Positions 24,334 to 29,597 of a stretch of 64,000 nt of DNA are shown here, piece by piece. The stretch lies in contig CAVVJT010000010.1 of NCBI GenBank assembly GCA_963748625.1, forward strand, positions 1,312,001 through 1,376,000. Direction: 5' to 3'. This DNA is from an uncultured Chloroflexia bacterium. GTDB lineage: Bacteria > Chloroflexota > Limnocylindria > Limnocylindrales > CSP1-4. The position numbers and the translations under genes were made by a program. The notes beneath the pieces were generated by a model that ran no database searches, was not told where the DNA came from, and saw nothing but the letters and a program-made list of their open reading frames with translations. How positions within the stretch are numbered: position 1 is the stretch's first letter; each line of letters begins with the position of its first letter.

Positions 24334-24840
24334 TCAGGCGCCCAACACGAGCACGGTGGCGACCACGATGAGCGCCAGGAAGATCACGGCCACCAGCACC
24401 CAGGTGAGCCGGAAGAGGCCGCGGCCGCGGTCCACGGGCATCCACGCCCAGGCGGAGCGCCAGATCCGCAGCGTGGCGTCGGCTGTGGTGACCAGGAGCA
24501 GCGGCGCGGCGAGCAGCACGCACAGCTTCACGATCGGGCTGCCGAGGCCTGCGCCCAGCTCCAACGCGGTGATCGCGATGGCGCCCAGCACGAGGGCGGG
24601 AGCCGACAGCAGGACGAAGTGCTTCTGAAGCGGCGTGGGCTTGGTCTCAGGGACGCTTCGAGGAGGCAGGCCGCGAAGGCTCTCGGGTACGGGGGTCGCG
24701 CCGAAGGGTCCCGCCGCCGACGTGGCGCCGGCCGCAGTGGCTGCCCCTCCGGCCGCTCCGCCCACGCCGGTCAGCACAGGTTCGGGGATCGCCTGCCGGT
24801 CCAGCACCGGCATGCCGGGCTCCCAGCGCTCGTCGTCCAT
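24334..24840 (-). CDS. Hypothetical membrane protein (3 TM)
   Basis: GC-biased ORF with three hydrophobic segments, 2 bp from the NUDIX start. Confidence 0.7.
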   Translation of the reverse strand: MDDERWEPGMPVLDRQAIPEPVLTGVGGAAGGAATAAGATSAAGPFGATPVPESLRGLPPRSVPETKPTPLQKHFVLLSAPALVLGAIAITALELGAGLGSPIVKLCVLLAAPLLLVTTADATLRIWRSAWAWMPVDRGRGLFRLTWVLVAVIFLALIVVATVLVLGA

Positions 24841-24884
24841 CGGTGGAGTCTATCGGCTCGCCGCCGGTGACCGCCTGTCCTGCA

Positions 24885-24990
24885 CCTCGCCCCGGCGTCA
24901 AGCCTGCGCCTCGCCCGGCCGTCCAGCCTGCGCCTCGCCCGGCCGTCCAGCCTGCGACTCGCCCCGGCCGTCCAGCCTGCGACTCGCCCC
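24885..24990 (+). repeat. About 24-bp tandem repeat, 4 copies (cctcgcccggccgtccagcctgcg)
   Basis: Directly visible; runs into the left TIR at 24985. Confidence 0.85.
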
Positions 24991-25095
24991 ACGTGTGGGC
25001 CATTTCCCGAGGTTCTGAGCGTGGTCCGGGCATGGAAGTCGGGGTTTGCCACGCAGACCGTGCGTGAGCGACGCGGATTCGCCCCCCACAAGCTC

Positions 25096-26130
25096 CTATG
25101 GTTTGTCAAGCCGGGGCAGCCACTCGACGGCGCCTTGTTCGAGCAGGCGGAACACGGCCCGCGAGATCCGGTGCTTGAGGCACCGGAGCGCCTCTGCCCA
25201 TGACTTGCCCGCCAGCTGCTTGCGCTCCATATAGGCCTTCGCGGGCGGGTGGTGCAGGGACTGCGAGAGGGCGACCGTGTAGAGCGCCCGGTTGAGCCGG
25301 CGGTTGCCGCCCCGGTTCAGGCGCATCCGCTGGACCTGCCCGGAGCTCGCCGGGATCGGGGCGACGCCCGCCAGCATCGCGAAGGCGTCGGGCGAGCGGA
25401 ACCGGGCGACATCGCCCGTCTCGGCCACCAGGCGGGCCGCGGTGACCGGTCCGACGCCGGGCAGCGCGAGGAGCGGGTGCCCGGCGACCCGCGCGGCGAT
25501 CTGCTGCTCGATCCCGTCCGCCTCGGCGCCCAGCCGGCGTACCTCGGCCAGGAGCCTGCGGGCGAGGTCCGCGCGGGTCCCCGCCATCGGGGCGAGCGCG
25601 GCCTCGATCGCGGCCAGCTGGCGCTGGGTGACGAGGCGCGCAGCGGTGCGGGCGTATCCCGGCAGCAGCACGACCAGGTGGGCGTGGAGCCGGTTGCGGG
25701 CCTGGACCCGTGCGACGACGACCACCTCTCGCGCGTCCGAGAGCAGGCCGAGGTCCTCCGCCAGGCCGCCGAGCCGGACCGGCGGCAGGTCGGGCTCGCG
25801 CTGGGTCACCCGGGCGATCGCGAGGGCATCACCCGGGTCGCTCTTGCCGGCGCGACGAGTGCGCGTCCGTTCCCGGCGGCTCAGGTGCGGCGGGGTCTCC
25901 CGGACGTCCACCCCGGCGGCGGCGAGGGCGCGGGCCGCCGGGGCGCCGTACGAGGACGAGCCCTCCACGCCGACGAGGGTGCCGGGGCCGAGGCCCCCGA
26001 CCCAGGCGACGAGCGCCGCCAGCCCCTCGGGGTCGCAGGCGAACTCCCGCTCGTCGACCGCCGTCCCGACGCCGTCGACCGCGCACGCGGCGAGCGTGCG
26101 CTTGTGCGTGTCGATCCCCACCACTGCCAT
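25096..26130 (-). CDS. IS110 family transposase/recombinase
   Basis: DEDD RuvC-like motifs VGIDTHK, VGVEG and KSDPGDA; Tnp domain LPGVGPVTAA, AGVAPIPASSG and RGGNRRLNRALY; RBS ggagg upstream. Confidence 0.97.
   Translation of the reverse strand: MAVVGIDTHKRTLAACAVDGVGTAVDEREFACDPEGLAALVAWVGGLGPGTLVGVEGSSSYGAPAARALAAAGVDVRETPPHLSRRERTRTRRAGKSDPGDALAIARVTQREPDLPPVRLGGLAEDLGLLSDAREVVVVARVQARNRLHAHLVVLLPGYARTAARLVTQRQLAAIEAALAPMAGTRADLARRLLAEVRRLGAEADGIEQQIAARVAGHPLLALPGVGPVTAARLVAETGDVARFRSPDAFAMLAGVAPIPASSGQVQRMRLNRGGNRRLNRALYTVALSQSLHHPPAKAYMERKQLAGKSWAEALRCLKHRISRAVFRLLEQGAVEWLPRLDKP
25104..25109 (-). promoter_or_regulatory. Outward-facing -35 hexamer TTGACA at the IS110 right end (circle-junction promoter half)
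   Basis: Perfect TTGACA 13 bp from the element end. On circularisation it lies 17 bp upstream of TAACTC in the left end, which is only a weak -10 match. Confidence 0.6.
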
Positions 26131-26149
26131 GCCGTGTCCTCCGTGCGTA

Positions 26150-26330
26150 CGATGGGCGCGGGCCGGCCGGGCAGCAGTGCGTTGAGGTTGAAGGCCACGC
26201 TCCTATGAGGCCACGGCCGGCCCGCTCGCTCCCGGGATGGGGGCACTTGTGGGGCAGGCCACCTTGCGGGGCACGTGGGGCAGGGCCAACCCATCCCGTT
26301 CGCGAGCACCTTCCCACACCCGGAGAAGGC
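26150..26330 (-). ncRNA. IS110 bridge RNA (target-binding and donor-binding loops)
   Basis: Stem cgggatggg/cccatcccg encloses gccccacgtg and gccccacaag, which match the target flanks. Stem gcgggccggccg/cggccggcccgc encloses cataggagcgtg and acgcac, which match the element ends. Confidence 0.8.
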
Positions 26331-26352
26331 CTGACGAGTTACGCACGTGGGG

Positions 26353-26496
26353 CGCCCGCAGCAAACGGAGGGCCGCCCGCAGCAGACTGGGCCGAGACCG
26401 GGCCGCCGGGCCGCCCGCAGCAGACTGGGCCGTGACCGGGCCGCCCGCGGCAGACGGAGGGCCGCCCGCGGCATACGGGGCCGTGACCGGGCCGCC
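26353..26496 (+). repeat. Degenerate tandem repeats (gccgcccgcagcagactgggccg-like)
   Basis: About five variable units right of the IS110/MITE. Confidence 0.75.
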
Positions 26497-26531
26497 GTGC
26501 CGCCCGCCGACAGGACGACGCACCCGCCGAC

Positions 26532-27035
26532 TCAGCCCGGAAGCGGCTCCGCATTGCTCTTGTCGTCCATCACCGACGCCGTCTGCGCAGCCCGCCAGGC
26601 ATCGAGCCGCGCCGCAAGACCGGCGTCGGACAGCGCCAGGATCGCCGCCGCCAGCAGCGCCGCGTTGTCCGCGTTCCCGATCGCGACCGTCGCAACCGGG
26701 ATCCCGCGCGGCATCTGCACGATCGAGAGCAGCGAGTCCAAGCCGCCCAGGTGCTGGGTCGGGATGGGCACCCCGATCACCGGCAGCGTCGTCTTCGCGG
26801 CCAGCATCCCGGGCAGATGCGCCGCCCCGCCGGCACCCGCGACGATCACCCGGATCCCCCGTTCGCGGGCGGTCTCCGCGTAGCGGAAGAGGTGGTCGGG
26901 CGTCCTGTGTGCCGAGACGACACGCAGCTCGCAGGGAACCCCGAGCTCCTCGAGCACGGCGACCGCCTTCTCGAGCACGGGGAAGTCCGAGCGGCTGCCA
27001 CCCACGATGCCGACCACCGGTCGCGTCCCGTCCAC
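26532..27035 (-). CDS. purE: N5-carboxyaminoimidazole ribonucleotide mutase
   Basis: [24 protein letters not shown] and [17 protein letters not shown]. Confidence 0.97.
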
Positions 27036-27042
27036 GATCCGC

Positions 27043-28758
27043 TCAGTCCTCCCAGCGCAGTGCGGCGCGCGCGCGGCGCGCGCGCTCGAGAGCCTCGTCG
27101 GCGTCGCGGCCGACCACCGTCAGGTGCCCCATCTTGCGCCGCTCGAACACCCGGCGCTTGCCGTAGACGTGGAGATGGACGCCGGGATCGCCCAGCGCCT
27201 CGGGCACTCCGCCGAGTCGCGCGTCGCGATCCGGGCCGCTGCCCAGCAGGTTGACCATCGCCGCGACGCCGTGCGGCACCGCCGATCCCAGCGGCAGCCC
27301 GAGGATCGCCCGCAGGTGCTGCTCGAACTGCGAGGTCGCGGCGCCCTCGATCGTCCAGTGGCCGGAGTTGTGCACCCGTGGTGCCAGCTCGTTGACCATC
27401 ATGCCGCCGCCGGGGAGCGAGAACAGCTCGGCGGTAACCACGCCCACCACGTCGAGCGCCCGCGCGATGCTCGCCCCCGTCTCGATCGCGTCGAACGCGA
27501 TGATCGGATCGACCGGTGCCGGAGCCACGCTCTCGCTGAGGATCCCCGCGTCATGGACGTTGCGTGACGGCGGGAAGGCGAGCGTCCGCCCGGTGCGTCC
27601 GCGAGCGGTCACCACGGACATCTCGCAGGCGTAGTCGATCTCCGCCTCCAGGAGCAGCGGCCGCCCGGCCTCGCCCCCCAGGGCGCCGACCGCCGCCGCA
27701 ACCTCCGTGCGTGTGGTGATCCGCACTTGCGAACGCCCGTCGTACCCGCCCAGCGGCAGCTTGAGCCGGCACGGATACCCGAGGTCCTCGGCGGCCGCTT
27801 CGGCCTCGGCGACGCCCCGGACCTCCCGCCAGGGGGCCGTCCACTCGCCCATGTCGCGGATGAAGCGGCGCTCAGCCAGGCGGTCCTGGGTCGCCCGAAG
27901 CGCGGTGAGTCCGGGCCGGAGCGGCGCCACCTCGGCCGCCGCCATCGCCGCCTCGAGGCCGACATGCTCCAGCTCGTAGGTGACGACATCGCTCCGGGAC
28001 GCCAGCCGGCGGGCGGCAGCCGCGTCGTCGTACCGCCCGACGATGATCTCGTCCGCCACGGCCGCGGTCGGGCAGGCGGGATCCGGATCCAGCGCGATCA
28101 GCCGGTAGCCCATCGCGCGCGCAGCGAAGCCCAGCATCCGGCCCAGCTGTCCTCCCCCGAGCACCCCGATGGTCGACCCCGGCGGCAGCGGCTCCACGCC
28201 CGCCGGCCCGCGGCGGATCCCCAGCCGGTACAGCGCGTCGAGGACGAAGTCGGCCTTCTGCATGGTGTAGGCCTCGAACGGCTCAGCCGCGACCGATCCG
28301 TCCACGATGCGCTGCTTGGTAGCGGCATAGGCGTCTCGCAGGGCGGCGTCGGCGAGCAGGGCGTCGCGGAAGCCCAGGAGCTCGGGCAGCTCGCGGCGGC
28401 CGGGTGGCATCACGTGCAGGTGGACGCGGTACGCCGTGCCCTCGTGGAGCACCTCGCCCACGAGCATCGGCCGGGTGGGCGGGAACGGTGCCAGGCCCTG
28501 CTGGCGTCCGAAACCGAGCGAGAGGAGGGCGTCGGTGAGGACCGGGATGTCGTCGGGGGCCGACTCCACGGCGAGGTCCACGATGTTCTTGCCAGGCAGC
28601 CCCGGGACGGCCGACGAGCCCACGTGCTCCACGGCAGCAGCGGGGTGCGCGCTCGCGATCAGGCGCGCCAGGCCCCGCGCGACCTCGACCGTCGCGGGGT
28701 CCCACGGGTGGAAGCCGGCCGGACGGCGCTCATAGGGGCGGACGGGCAGGTCGGACAT
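27043..28758 (-). CDS. purK: GrpB (UPF0157) domain fused to N5-CAIR synthase PurK
   Basis: N-terminal [24 protein letters not shown] and FRDALL..YAATK (GrpB), in frame with [31 protein letters not shown] and RKMGH (PurK). Confidence 0.92.
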
Positions 28759-28774
28759 GGGGCCGAAGTGTAGA

Positions 28775-28838
28775 GGACGCCGCGTCGGGGACGCCGCGTC
28801 GGGGACGCCGCGTCGGGGACGCCGCGTCGGGGACGCCG
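28775..28838 (+). repeat. 14-bp tandem repeat, about 4.5 copies (ggacgccgcgtcgg), palindromic unit
   Basis: Directly visible, immediately upstream of grpB-purK. Confidence 0.9.
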
Positions 28839-28901
28839 CCGGAACGTGGTGCGGGCGCCGGCTCCGGACAGGACTAGGCCCGTCGCCCGCACGAGGACAG
28901 A

Positions 28902-29426
28902 TCAGTTCGACGTGATCACCACGGACCCGGCGCTCATCAGGAACATGAAGCTCAGGGCACCCAAGATGCCGAAGACGAGCGGCAGGATGACCAGGATCCA
29001 GAGGCAGCCGATTGCGGCGCCGCTGGGCTTCTGCACCGGCCCGCCGTACTGGGCGGCCCAATCCTCGTCGGACTTGAGCAGGTACAGGATCCCCTCGATC
29101 CAGGCGATGAACGAGGGGATGCCCGTCCACGAGAAGACCAGGTACAGGATCCCCATGCCCACCCGGCCCAAGTAGAACTTGTGCAGGCCGAGGCCGCCCA
29201 GGAGGATCGCCAGGGCCGCCGCGACGACACGACTCTTCGGCGAGGCCGGGGCGTAGGCGGGCGCGTAGGCCATGGGGGGAGCCGCGGGTGCCGGAGCGAC
29301 CGGCGGCGGAGCCGGGGCAACGGGCGGCGCGACAGGCGGCGCGGCCGGAGGCGGGGCCGGGGTCACGGGCGGCGCGGGCGCGTCGGGCGGCGGGGTCTGC
29401 GCAAGGTTGGGGTCGGATTCGGTCAT
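28902..29426 (-). CDS. TM2/NINE-domain membrane protein with Pro-rich N-terminus
   Basis: KSRVVAAALAILLGGLGLHKFYLG...WIEGILYL. Confidence 0.88.
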   Translation of the reverse strand: MTESDPNLAQTPPPDAPAPPVTPAPPPAAPPVAPPVAPAPPPVAPAPAAPPMAYAPAYAPASPKSRVVAAALAILLGGLGLHKFYLGRVGMGILYLVFSWTGIPSFIAWIEGILYLLKSDEDWAAQYGGPVQKPSGAAIGCLWILVILPLVFGILGALSFMFLMSAGSVVITSN

Positions 29427-29597
29427 GGGAGCTCCTCAGGCTGGTGCGGGGCATGCCAAGCGTGGCACAGACCTCGCCCCTTGTGCGGGCCGTCTGAGCG
29501 CCTGGCCTCCACCCCCGGCGCCTGAGCGCCTGCCCTCAACCCGACGCCTGAGCGCCGGCGGCTGGCACCCGGCCTTGCGAACGGCGACAATCCCGCC

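Follow-up and report, generated by a model that had tools for sequence, protein, structure and literature searches.

A highly probable IS110-group insertion sequence with its own bridge RNA in a repeat of an uncultured Chloroflexota genome

Element boundaries, insertion site and recombinase

The 64,000-nt stretch of DNA analyzed here (the window; positions 1,312,001 to 1,376,000 of contig CAVVJT010000010.1, assembly GCA_963748625.1, from an uncultured Chloroflexota bacterium) carries on its minus strand an element that we hold, with high confidence, to be an intact insertion sequence (IS) of the IS110 family, IS110 group, with a bridge RNA that names both the element's own ends and a target in a host repeat. 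The anatomy of the element, the covariation of its guides with their flanks and of its stems with themselves, the paralogous empty sites and the conserved catalytic residues are what the analysis shows. A first-pass annotation, made from the letters alone, had proposed such an element, and every string and coordinate it gave, including both junction strings, was correct. Read on the minus strand, the left junction consists of gccccacg (26353-26346), TG (26345-26344) and cgtaac, and the right junction of cataggagct (25100-25091), TG (25090-25089) and tgggggg. The element, its recombinase open reading frame (ORF) and its insertion site are laid out as follows.

25091-26343, minus strand: body of the IS110-group element (cgtaac ... 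cataggagct), 1253 nt, with one copy of the TG core at each junction
26344-26345, minus strand: left copy of the TG core, the TG common to both junctions and found once in uninterrupted paralogous sites
25089-25090, minus strand: right copy of the TG core, placed by the junction reading and the paralogous sites
26346-26353, minus strand: left target flank (LT), gccccacg, identical to the left target guide (LTG)
25082-25088, minus strand: right target flank (RT), tgggggg, to which the right target guide (RTG) is complementary over tgggg
24986-25088, no strand assigned: body of a ~113-nt host repeat resembling miniature inverted-repeat transposable elements (MITE) or repetitive extragenic palindromes (REP), its right-hand terminal inverted repeat split by the IS
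25096-26130, minus strand: open ORF for an IS110-family RNA-guided transposase of 344 aa (DEDD residues D7/E56/D98/D101; catalytic serine S263)

The closest relative (L005, 80% DNA identity; relatives are given L numbers throughout) is similar to the window only between 26346 and 25088. The non-coding left end is 213 nt long (26131-26343), just 5 nt lie between the stop codon of the ORF and the right boundary, and the repeat analysis of the element reported no inverted repeat joining its two ends. A long non-coding left end, a short right end and the lack of long terminal or subterminal inverted repeats are features of the IS110 group. Membership in the IS1111 (seekRNA) group was considered and rejected, as the guides are in the left end and the right end is only 5 nt long after the stop codon.

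The core was read from empty sites in the same genome, for which TG-register and GC-register versions (the latter with the crossover two bases further in) were both built by script from the window coordinates and then searched. The TG-register 15-mer of LT, TG and RT, belonging to the predicted empty site gccccacgTGtgggg, occurs six times exactly and 28 times with at most one mismatch, compared with 0-1 exact and 0-8 near matches for 20 composition shuffles of the same 15-mer. The uninterrupted paralogous sites read cacgTGtgggg and are followed by the repeat body that also forms the right flank of the IS. Because these paralogous repeat ends serve as empty sites reading one TG, the TG register and the element boundaries are supported, and both the TG core and the empty sites predicted by the first-pass annotation are borne out by paralogous copies that hold a single TG. 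As judged from these paralogous (not orthologous) sites, insertion was conservative, duplicating nothing of the target beyond the 2-nt core.

The TG-register sites are the terminal inverted repeats of the ~113-nt repeat, found as inverse pairs 96 nt apart. The 103-nt repeat unit has 37 blastn matches in the genome, of which 30 reach 80 nt or more, and neither Rfam nor protein families explain the repeat. The IS thus lies in one terminal repeat of this family, whose paralogs act as its empty sites, and the intact left-hand terminal repeat stands at 24986-25000, 90 nt from the IS. The repeat comprises 24986-25088 plus 26344-26353, with 15-nt terminal inverted repeats that are GCCCCACGTGTGGGG-like, and the repeat-end halves CCCCAC and GTGGGG could pair around GT.

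The recombinase is intact, as the first-pass annotation had claimed: the ORF is open, and D7, E56, D98, D101 and S263-G264 are invariant across nine aligned homologs. The protein scores 211.1 bits against a cut-off of 140 with NF033542 (the NCBIfam equivalog 'IS110 family RNA-guided transposase') and contains a DEDD RuvC-like N-terminal domain (PF01548, E = 2e-25) and a C-terminal Tnp domain with the catalytic Ser-Gly (PF02371, E = 3e-25), so that both domains and the whole-protein model assign it to the IS110 group. Among solved structures, only IS621 and ISCro4 match, at a single-sequence phmmer E value of about 1e-10; with a nine-sequence clade profile the values improve to 2e-22 for IS621 (8wt6) and 2e-24 for ISCro4 (9t56), with the DEDD and Ser-Gly residues aligned. 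In this profile alignment, D11/E60/D102/D105/S241-G242 of IS621, which are named by Hiraizumi 2024 (PMC11208158), correspond to D7/E56/D98/D101/S263-G264 here. Relatives at 37-44% identity are mostly from Actinomycetota when one genome per species is considered.

Guides, stems and their covariation in relatives

The first-pass annotation had read a layout of LTG and RTG, followed by left and right donor guides (LDG and RDG), in the non-coding left end. These guide strings are present where it placed them, they covary with the flanks in homologs, and the predicted RNA that holds them comprises the following parts.

26300-26337, minus strand: 5' stem-loop of the predicted bridge RNA, from the fold of the window sequence; the weakest helix, with 75% of cells paired
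26233-26298, minus strand: target-binding loop module (basal stem, LTG, small distal hairpin, RTG), which folds as such
26272-26281, minus strand: LTG gccccacgtg, same sense as LT plus core, identical to flank and core at 10 of 10 positions
26246-26254, minus strand: RTG ccccaca with the handshake guide ag, the complement of ct-TG-tgggg
26160-26223, minus strand: donor-binding loop module (10-bp basal stem, GGC/GCC, LDG, short linker, RDG), fold z-score -3.0
26196-26207, minus strand: LDG cataggagcgtg, an 11/12 match to right end plus core
26177-26182, minus strand: acgcac, that is RDG acgca (5 nt) with one handshake guide base c, the complement of g-TG-cgt
25104-25109, minus strand: TTGACA, a -35-like hexamer in the right end that would face the left end across a circle junction

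In the target module, the stem of cgggatggg (26298-26290) with cccatcccg (26241-26233) encloses the LTG and a second guide string, gccccacaag (26255-26246). The first loop is complementary to the target, its 5' side to the bottom strand and its 3' side to the top strand with the core included, and it covaries with that target in relatives. The second loop is complementary to the junction of the right and left ends (11 of 12 positions in the LDG; 5 nt plus 1 in the RDG). Of the LDG claim, the 11/12 match stood, and the single mismatch proved to be no mutation: it is conserved clade-wide, and among the 24 elements whose right end is known, none has the donor base at the core-adjacent LDG position. 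Random genomic 10-mers found an exact match in the 213-nt left end in 194 of 200,000 draws, and 9-mers in 581 of 200,000. Since the random 10-mer rate is about 1e-3, two guide matches with the right place and strand are far beyond chance.

Homologs were collected from the genus, the class, a set with one genome per species and metagenome contigs, and after filtering the close-clade set held 33 elements (at least 49% protein identity), 26 of them with a TG core. Duplicate retrievals of the same loci (L034, L005, L133, L144, L137, L007, L140) and elements with no left end or loop in the fetched DNA (L128, L142, L052, L146) were dropped; the CA-core elements L057 and L147-149 and the decayed copy L041 were left out of the TG-core statistic, and L141 and its public twin L054 were excluded because genome G182 was flagged as unpublished, so that no statement here depends on them. 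The statistic was alignment-free and recorded the length of the longest piece of flank plus core that recurs exactly at any place in the loop region. For the left flank plus core, the mean over the 26 non-redundant TG-core elements was 7.4 in the element's own loop vs 4.4 in non-self loops, and for the right flank (21 elements) it was 6.0 vs 4.6; none of 2000 permutations reached the observed sum for either flank, although the homologs are kin, so that these permutation figures overstate independence and are not true probabilities. For the window element, left flank plus core match its loop exactly over 10 nt and the loops of the 25 other elements over at most 7 nt (0/25 reach 10), while its right flank gives a 7-nt match in its own loop that is reached in one of the 25 others. 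Covariation of guide segments with target sites across homologs, on which the first-pass annotation had let its proposal depend, was thus found on both sides.

Individual relatives make the same point. In L005, the LTG gactcacagtg equals its own flank gactcacagTG, and its RTG is the complement of ctTGtcaa at the right junction; in L034, the guide-flank matches are 11 and 10 nt long; and in L129 and L131, two different insertions of one element, the RTG matches ct-TG-RT at 10/10 and 9/10 positions. Where the LTG shows a single mismatch of u vs a top-strand c (L046, L007, L050, L053), the base still forms a wobble with the bottom-strand g. The donor motif ATAGGAGC is present both upstream of the ORF and after it in most relatives. 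As a separate observation, the LTG of L037, L039, L048, L049, L053, L131/L129, L136 and L139 matches the flank over 7-9 nt and then departs from it in 2-4 core-proximal bases, and in L039 the match looks offset by 2 nt.

In L008 (= L036, L056; reverse complement, about 225-1500), the donor loop is split inside the LDG (catag / gagcgtgg) by a second IS110-family element in the opposite orientation, whose transposase is 36% identical to that of the window and which has AG at both junctions. In genome G080, four copies (L040, L042, L043, L044) of an element 42% identical to the window's carry the loop strings ctagactgcc and catgcgtt, which match the flanks tagactg.. and aacgcatg conserved in all copies; they share the donor motif cataggagc with the window and have a different core register.

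The folding check named in the first-pass annotation recovered the stems around both guide pairs, in a fold of the whole left end as well as in separate folds of the two modules, and these stems covary. The consensus of 26 aligned left ends likewise holds two stem-framed modules, giving a left-end RNA with two loops in conserved stems; in the donor module, a linker of 11-13 nt is all that separates LDG from RDG. Covariation was scored on a structure of 30 pairs, from which the LDG:RDG pairs proposed by RNAalifold, which show no variation in the alignment, were omitted and to which the 5' hairpin was added; that hairpin is poorly supported in the MAFFT alignment and is retained solely as a fold of the window's own sequence. 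Across the 26 homologs, 91.9% of cells in this structure are paired, and 18 of the 30 pairs are compensatory vs 7.2 +/- 1.6 in shuffles (0/500 reach the observed value) and 3-7 with the partners slid. The basal helices carry compensatory changes at 7 of 10 pairs in the target module and 7 of 12 in the donor module. An Rfam scan of 24800-26700 returned three chance-level matches only (E 2.3-9.7), with none at threshold in that release.

In the described mechanism, the bases 3' of RTG and RDG pair with non-cognate DNA positions 6-7 after strand exchange, and a position 7 shared between target and donor is harmful (Hiraizumi 2024, PMC11208158; Perry 2025, bioRxiv 10.1101/2025.05.14.653916). In the window, positions 6-7 are cg in the target and ct in the donor, so that position 7 differs; the RTG is followed by ag, the complement of donor ct, and the RDG by c, the complement of target g. 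The first-pass annotation had taken these extensions of the right guides for handshake guides, and they covary in the clade. The core-adjacent handshake base of the target loop is complementary to donor position 7 in 22/24 elements (the window value was read by eye), target position 7 is G in 24/26 elements, opposite the invariant C adjacent to the RDG, and the second handshake base of the donor loop forms a Watson-Crick pair with target position 6 in 17/26, with three more wobble pairs. Among these are compensatory cases, with gg opposite donor cc (L136, L139) and u opposite donor ca (L039).

The core itself has switched within the clade. The elements of a CA-core subgroup, with three copies in one genome (L147-149) plus L057 and L146, finish with ...gagct-CA. 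The start of L147-149 is ...CA-tgcgtaac; in these copies CA closes the LTG, TG is found in the RTG, and the RDG is acgcaTGg, which fits c-CA-tgcgt, while the LDG is still ATAGGAGCGTGG. Three of the four guides in this subgroup (LTG, RTG and RDG) therefore follow the core change and the LDG does not.

It is possible, but in our judgment doubtful, that the Chloroflexota/Actinomycetota clade with the ATAGGAGC donor motif uses a guide code slightly different from that of IS621, with a third handshake on the bottom strand. This reading draws on the 12-nt same-sense guide sides, on a donor loop without a real distal hairpin and on an LDG core-adjacent base that equals target position 7 instead of the donor base. 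In L135, target position 7 is A and the LDG base is A; in L053, target position 7 is A and the LDG keeps G. L135 is also the only element with an LDG ending ...GCATGA instead of ...GCGTGG, and one of two with A at target position 7. If true, a third bottom-strand handshake would favour completion of exchange. On the same reading, the natural switch of close relatives from TG to CA with an unchanged LDG would mean that this clade can do without pairing between LDG and core.

Proposed mechanism, rival readings and genomic context

By analogy with IS621, from which transcription, the circular intermediate, the chemistry and any current activity are extrapolated, the element would work as follows. 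The bridge RNA, encoded by the 213-nt left end, would combine a 5' hairpin with one loop that binds the target and another that binds the donor. The LDG (cauaggagcgUG) and RDG (acgCA) would address the junction of right and left ends in a circular intermediate, which in the TG register would read cataggagctTGcgtaac, and the DEDD/Ser recombinase would carry out a conservative strand exchange at the shared TG. As handshake guides, the ag that follows the RTG and the c that follows the RDG would pair with the non-cognate partner once the top strands have been exchanged. The programmed target would be the 15-nt terminal inverted repeat of the ~113-nt host repeat, in one copy of which the element sits. 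A junction promoter has been described for IS621 (Durrant 2024, PMC11208160), and a comparable one is plausible on the circular form here: the computed circle junction reads TTGACA, 17 nt, TAACTC, and of 65 distinct right ends, 63 have TTGAC no more than 16 nt upstream of their ATAGGAGC, in any reading frame.

Several observations weigh against our reading, besides the kinship of the homologs noted above. The element is present in a single copy in its own genome (a 10-contig, 4.6-Mb assembly) although six exact target sites exist; this could reflect low activity or assembly collapse in a 10-contig metagenome-assembled genome (MAG). The -10 hexamer TAACTC across the circle junction is poor by the E. 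coli consensus, a promoter/terminator scan of the integrated copy, limited to E. coli-type signals, yielded neither a sigma-70-type promoter nor any other signal, and no RNA runs are listed for the stretch, so that transcription of the left end is predicted only. No orthologous empty site was found in a search of the purE flank across 70 genus genomes, the intergenic region not being conserved in 11 related species. Among the relatives, L006 and L008 have right flanks that their RTG does not match, the right sides of L125, L138 and L055 score no better than non-self, and in about 10 elements the LTG deviates from the flank in 2-4 core-proximal bases. Finally, the LDG never pairs with donor position 7 in any element, and in the CA subgroup it does not pair with the core.

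With this in mind, three other explanations were weighed. A crossover at GC rather than TG, which would make the element gtaac...catagga, the target gccccacgt-GC-ttgtgggg and the circle junction cataggaGCgtaac (a circle junction or scar reading cataggagcgtaac), has real attractions in the guides: the LDG cataggaGCgt would match the junction without a mismatch, the LTG gccccacgtgc would extend its match to 11 nt, the RTG ...caagu could pair with the core through a G.U wobble, and the LDG ATAGGAGCGTG is constant even where the core is CA. The RTG would then pair with half of the core only, however, and the empty site would need to contain gctt. The corresponding 19-mer has no genome match at up to one mismatch, and the five 15-mers of this register have 0 exact and 0-1 near matches vs 6 exact and 28 near for the TG 15-mer, while the uninterrupted paralogs lead on to the repeat body that lies beyond the right junction of the IS. 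The paralogous sites fit TG and not GC, and the GC register was rejected as very improbable. Even less credible is the idea that no RNA guides the reaction and that the guide-like matches arose by chance or as side effects of insertion, through terminal or target duplications. That no Rfam family matches the left end would be in keeping with it, but the matches are found 60-170 nt from the element's edge, in loops that covarying stems enclose. Independent insertions show them changing together with the flanks, the pair combines a sense with an antisense match in the manner of IS621, and a 10-mer would match by chance at a rate of about 1e-3.

More serious, though still unlikely, is that the copy is an inactive relic, with an ORF and RNA that look intact in an element that no longer moves or in a lineage nearing loss. 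The single copy fits this, given that the genome offers 6 exact and 22 near-exact target sites, as do the truncated IS110-family remnant on contig C7 and the decayed relatives elsewhere (L041, which has internal deletions, and L008, whose donor loop another IS interrupts). Set against these are an open ORF with all catalytic residues, four guides that are perfect or near-perfect vs the present junctions, and an identical left end in a different context in another sample; moreover, MAG assemblies often collapse IS copies. We retain the reading of an intact IS110-group element with a bridge RNA. The C7 remnant (G000:C7:161188-161682) is 49% identical to the recombinase and covers residues 174-334 only.

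The comparison with other samples used contigs of four DNA runs at depths below 3. A 291-nt contig of run X3 is identical to the window over 26076-26352 and then continues with 14 unrelated letters, which is thin evidence for this element in another distal context, with the 7-nt LT unchanged. Other run contigs end at 25090 and at 26346. None of the contigs joins across the element, as an empty-site allele of the locus would, and none contains a circle-junction joint; as only contigs were available, this absence is uninformative.

The repeat and the IS lie between two tandem arrays, in the intergenic region between purE and a membrane-protein gene. The tandem repeats flank them at 24890-24989 and 26349-26507; one array has four copies of a 24-25-nt unit and the other three copies of a 70-nt reference, spaced 38 and 51 nt. 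In the purE-flank search, similarity begins only at the purE stop codon, and the 15-mer with up to two mismatches occurs in none of the 11 fetched purE loci. Adjoining purE (26532-27035), an 803-aa ORF on the minus strand (27043-29454) has GrpB and PurK-type domains (pre-ATP-grasp, ATP-grasp, PurK_C); its Arg/Pro-rich N-terminus of ~240 aa has no Pfam match, and its start may be over-called.

Comparison with known bridge-RNA systems

Bridge RNAs have been predicted in 85.7% of the IS110-group elements in ISfinder, with covariation tested on thousands of pairs (Durrant 2024, PMC11208160). Because IS110 bridge RNAs have been known since 2024 and are predicted for most catalogued members, the present element is one more ortholog with a bridge RNA of an already described class, and it leaves the known mechanism unchanged. 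Its peculiarities are modest: the core is TG, the guide sides measure 12 nt, the donor-loop hairpin is reduced and the LDG mismatch is conserved. What it adds is a case in which all four guides, the handshake bases, the target repeat family and the re-programmed relatives can be read from sequence alone, and it gives the set of candidate bridge recombinases a member from a high-GC uncultured lineage, one whose core is TG and whose guides are longer. If the enzyme is active, longer guides and a TG core could aid specificity or give access to sites beyond those of CT-core enzymes.

The element shares with IS621 and ISCro4 (IS622) a DEDD RuvC-like domain and a Tnp domain with the catalytic Ser-Gly, a long left end with a minimal right end, and an RNA with a 5' hairpin and two stem-enclosed loops whose guides include the 2-nt core. 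They also have in common a genomic repeat as the natural target, a -35 box that faces the left end from within the right end, and handshake bases on the 3' side of RTG and RDG (Durrant 2024, PMC11208160; Hiraizumi 2024, PMC11208158; Perry 2025, bioRxiv 10.1101/2025.05.14.653916). In the target module, the order of stem, LTG, small hairpin and RTG is that described for IS621. In contrast, the protein is only distantly related to those of IS621 and ISCro4 (phmmer E about 1e-10), and the host is a high-GC uncultured Chloroflexota MAG. Compared with IS621, the core is TG instead of CT, the same-sense guides have a greater length (12 nt on the loop side, of which 10-11 nt match, vs 8-9 nt), the donor loop lacks a clear distal stem-loop and has only a linker of 11-13 nt from LDG to RDG, and the core-adjacent LDG base is a conserved mismatch to the donor.

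Two other systems invite comparison. ISPpu10 and ISPpu9 of Pseudomonas putida are likewise IS110-family elements described as inserting into a multi-copy, conserved, intergenic or REP-type sequence capable of forming a stem-loop (bioRxiv 10.64898/2026.03.19.712850), whereas the target here is the terminal inverted repeat of a ~113-nt repeat. The IS1111 group, or seekRNA elements, has the same recombinase family and an RNA-guided choice of target (Durrant 2024, PMC11208160), but its RNA lies in a long right end with subterminal inverted repeats of 7-17 bp, whereas the RNA of the present element lies in the left end.

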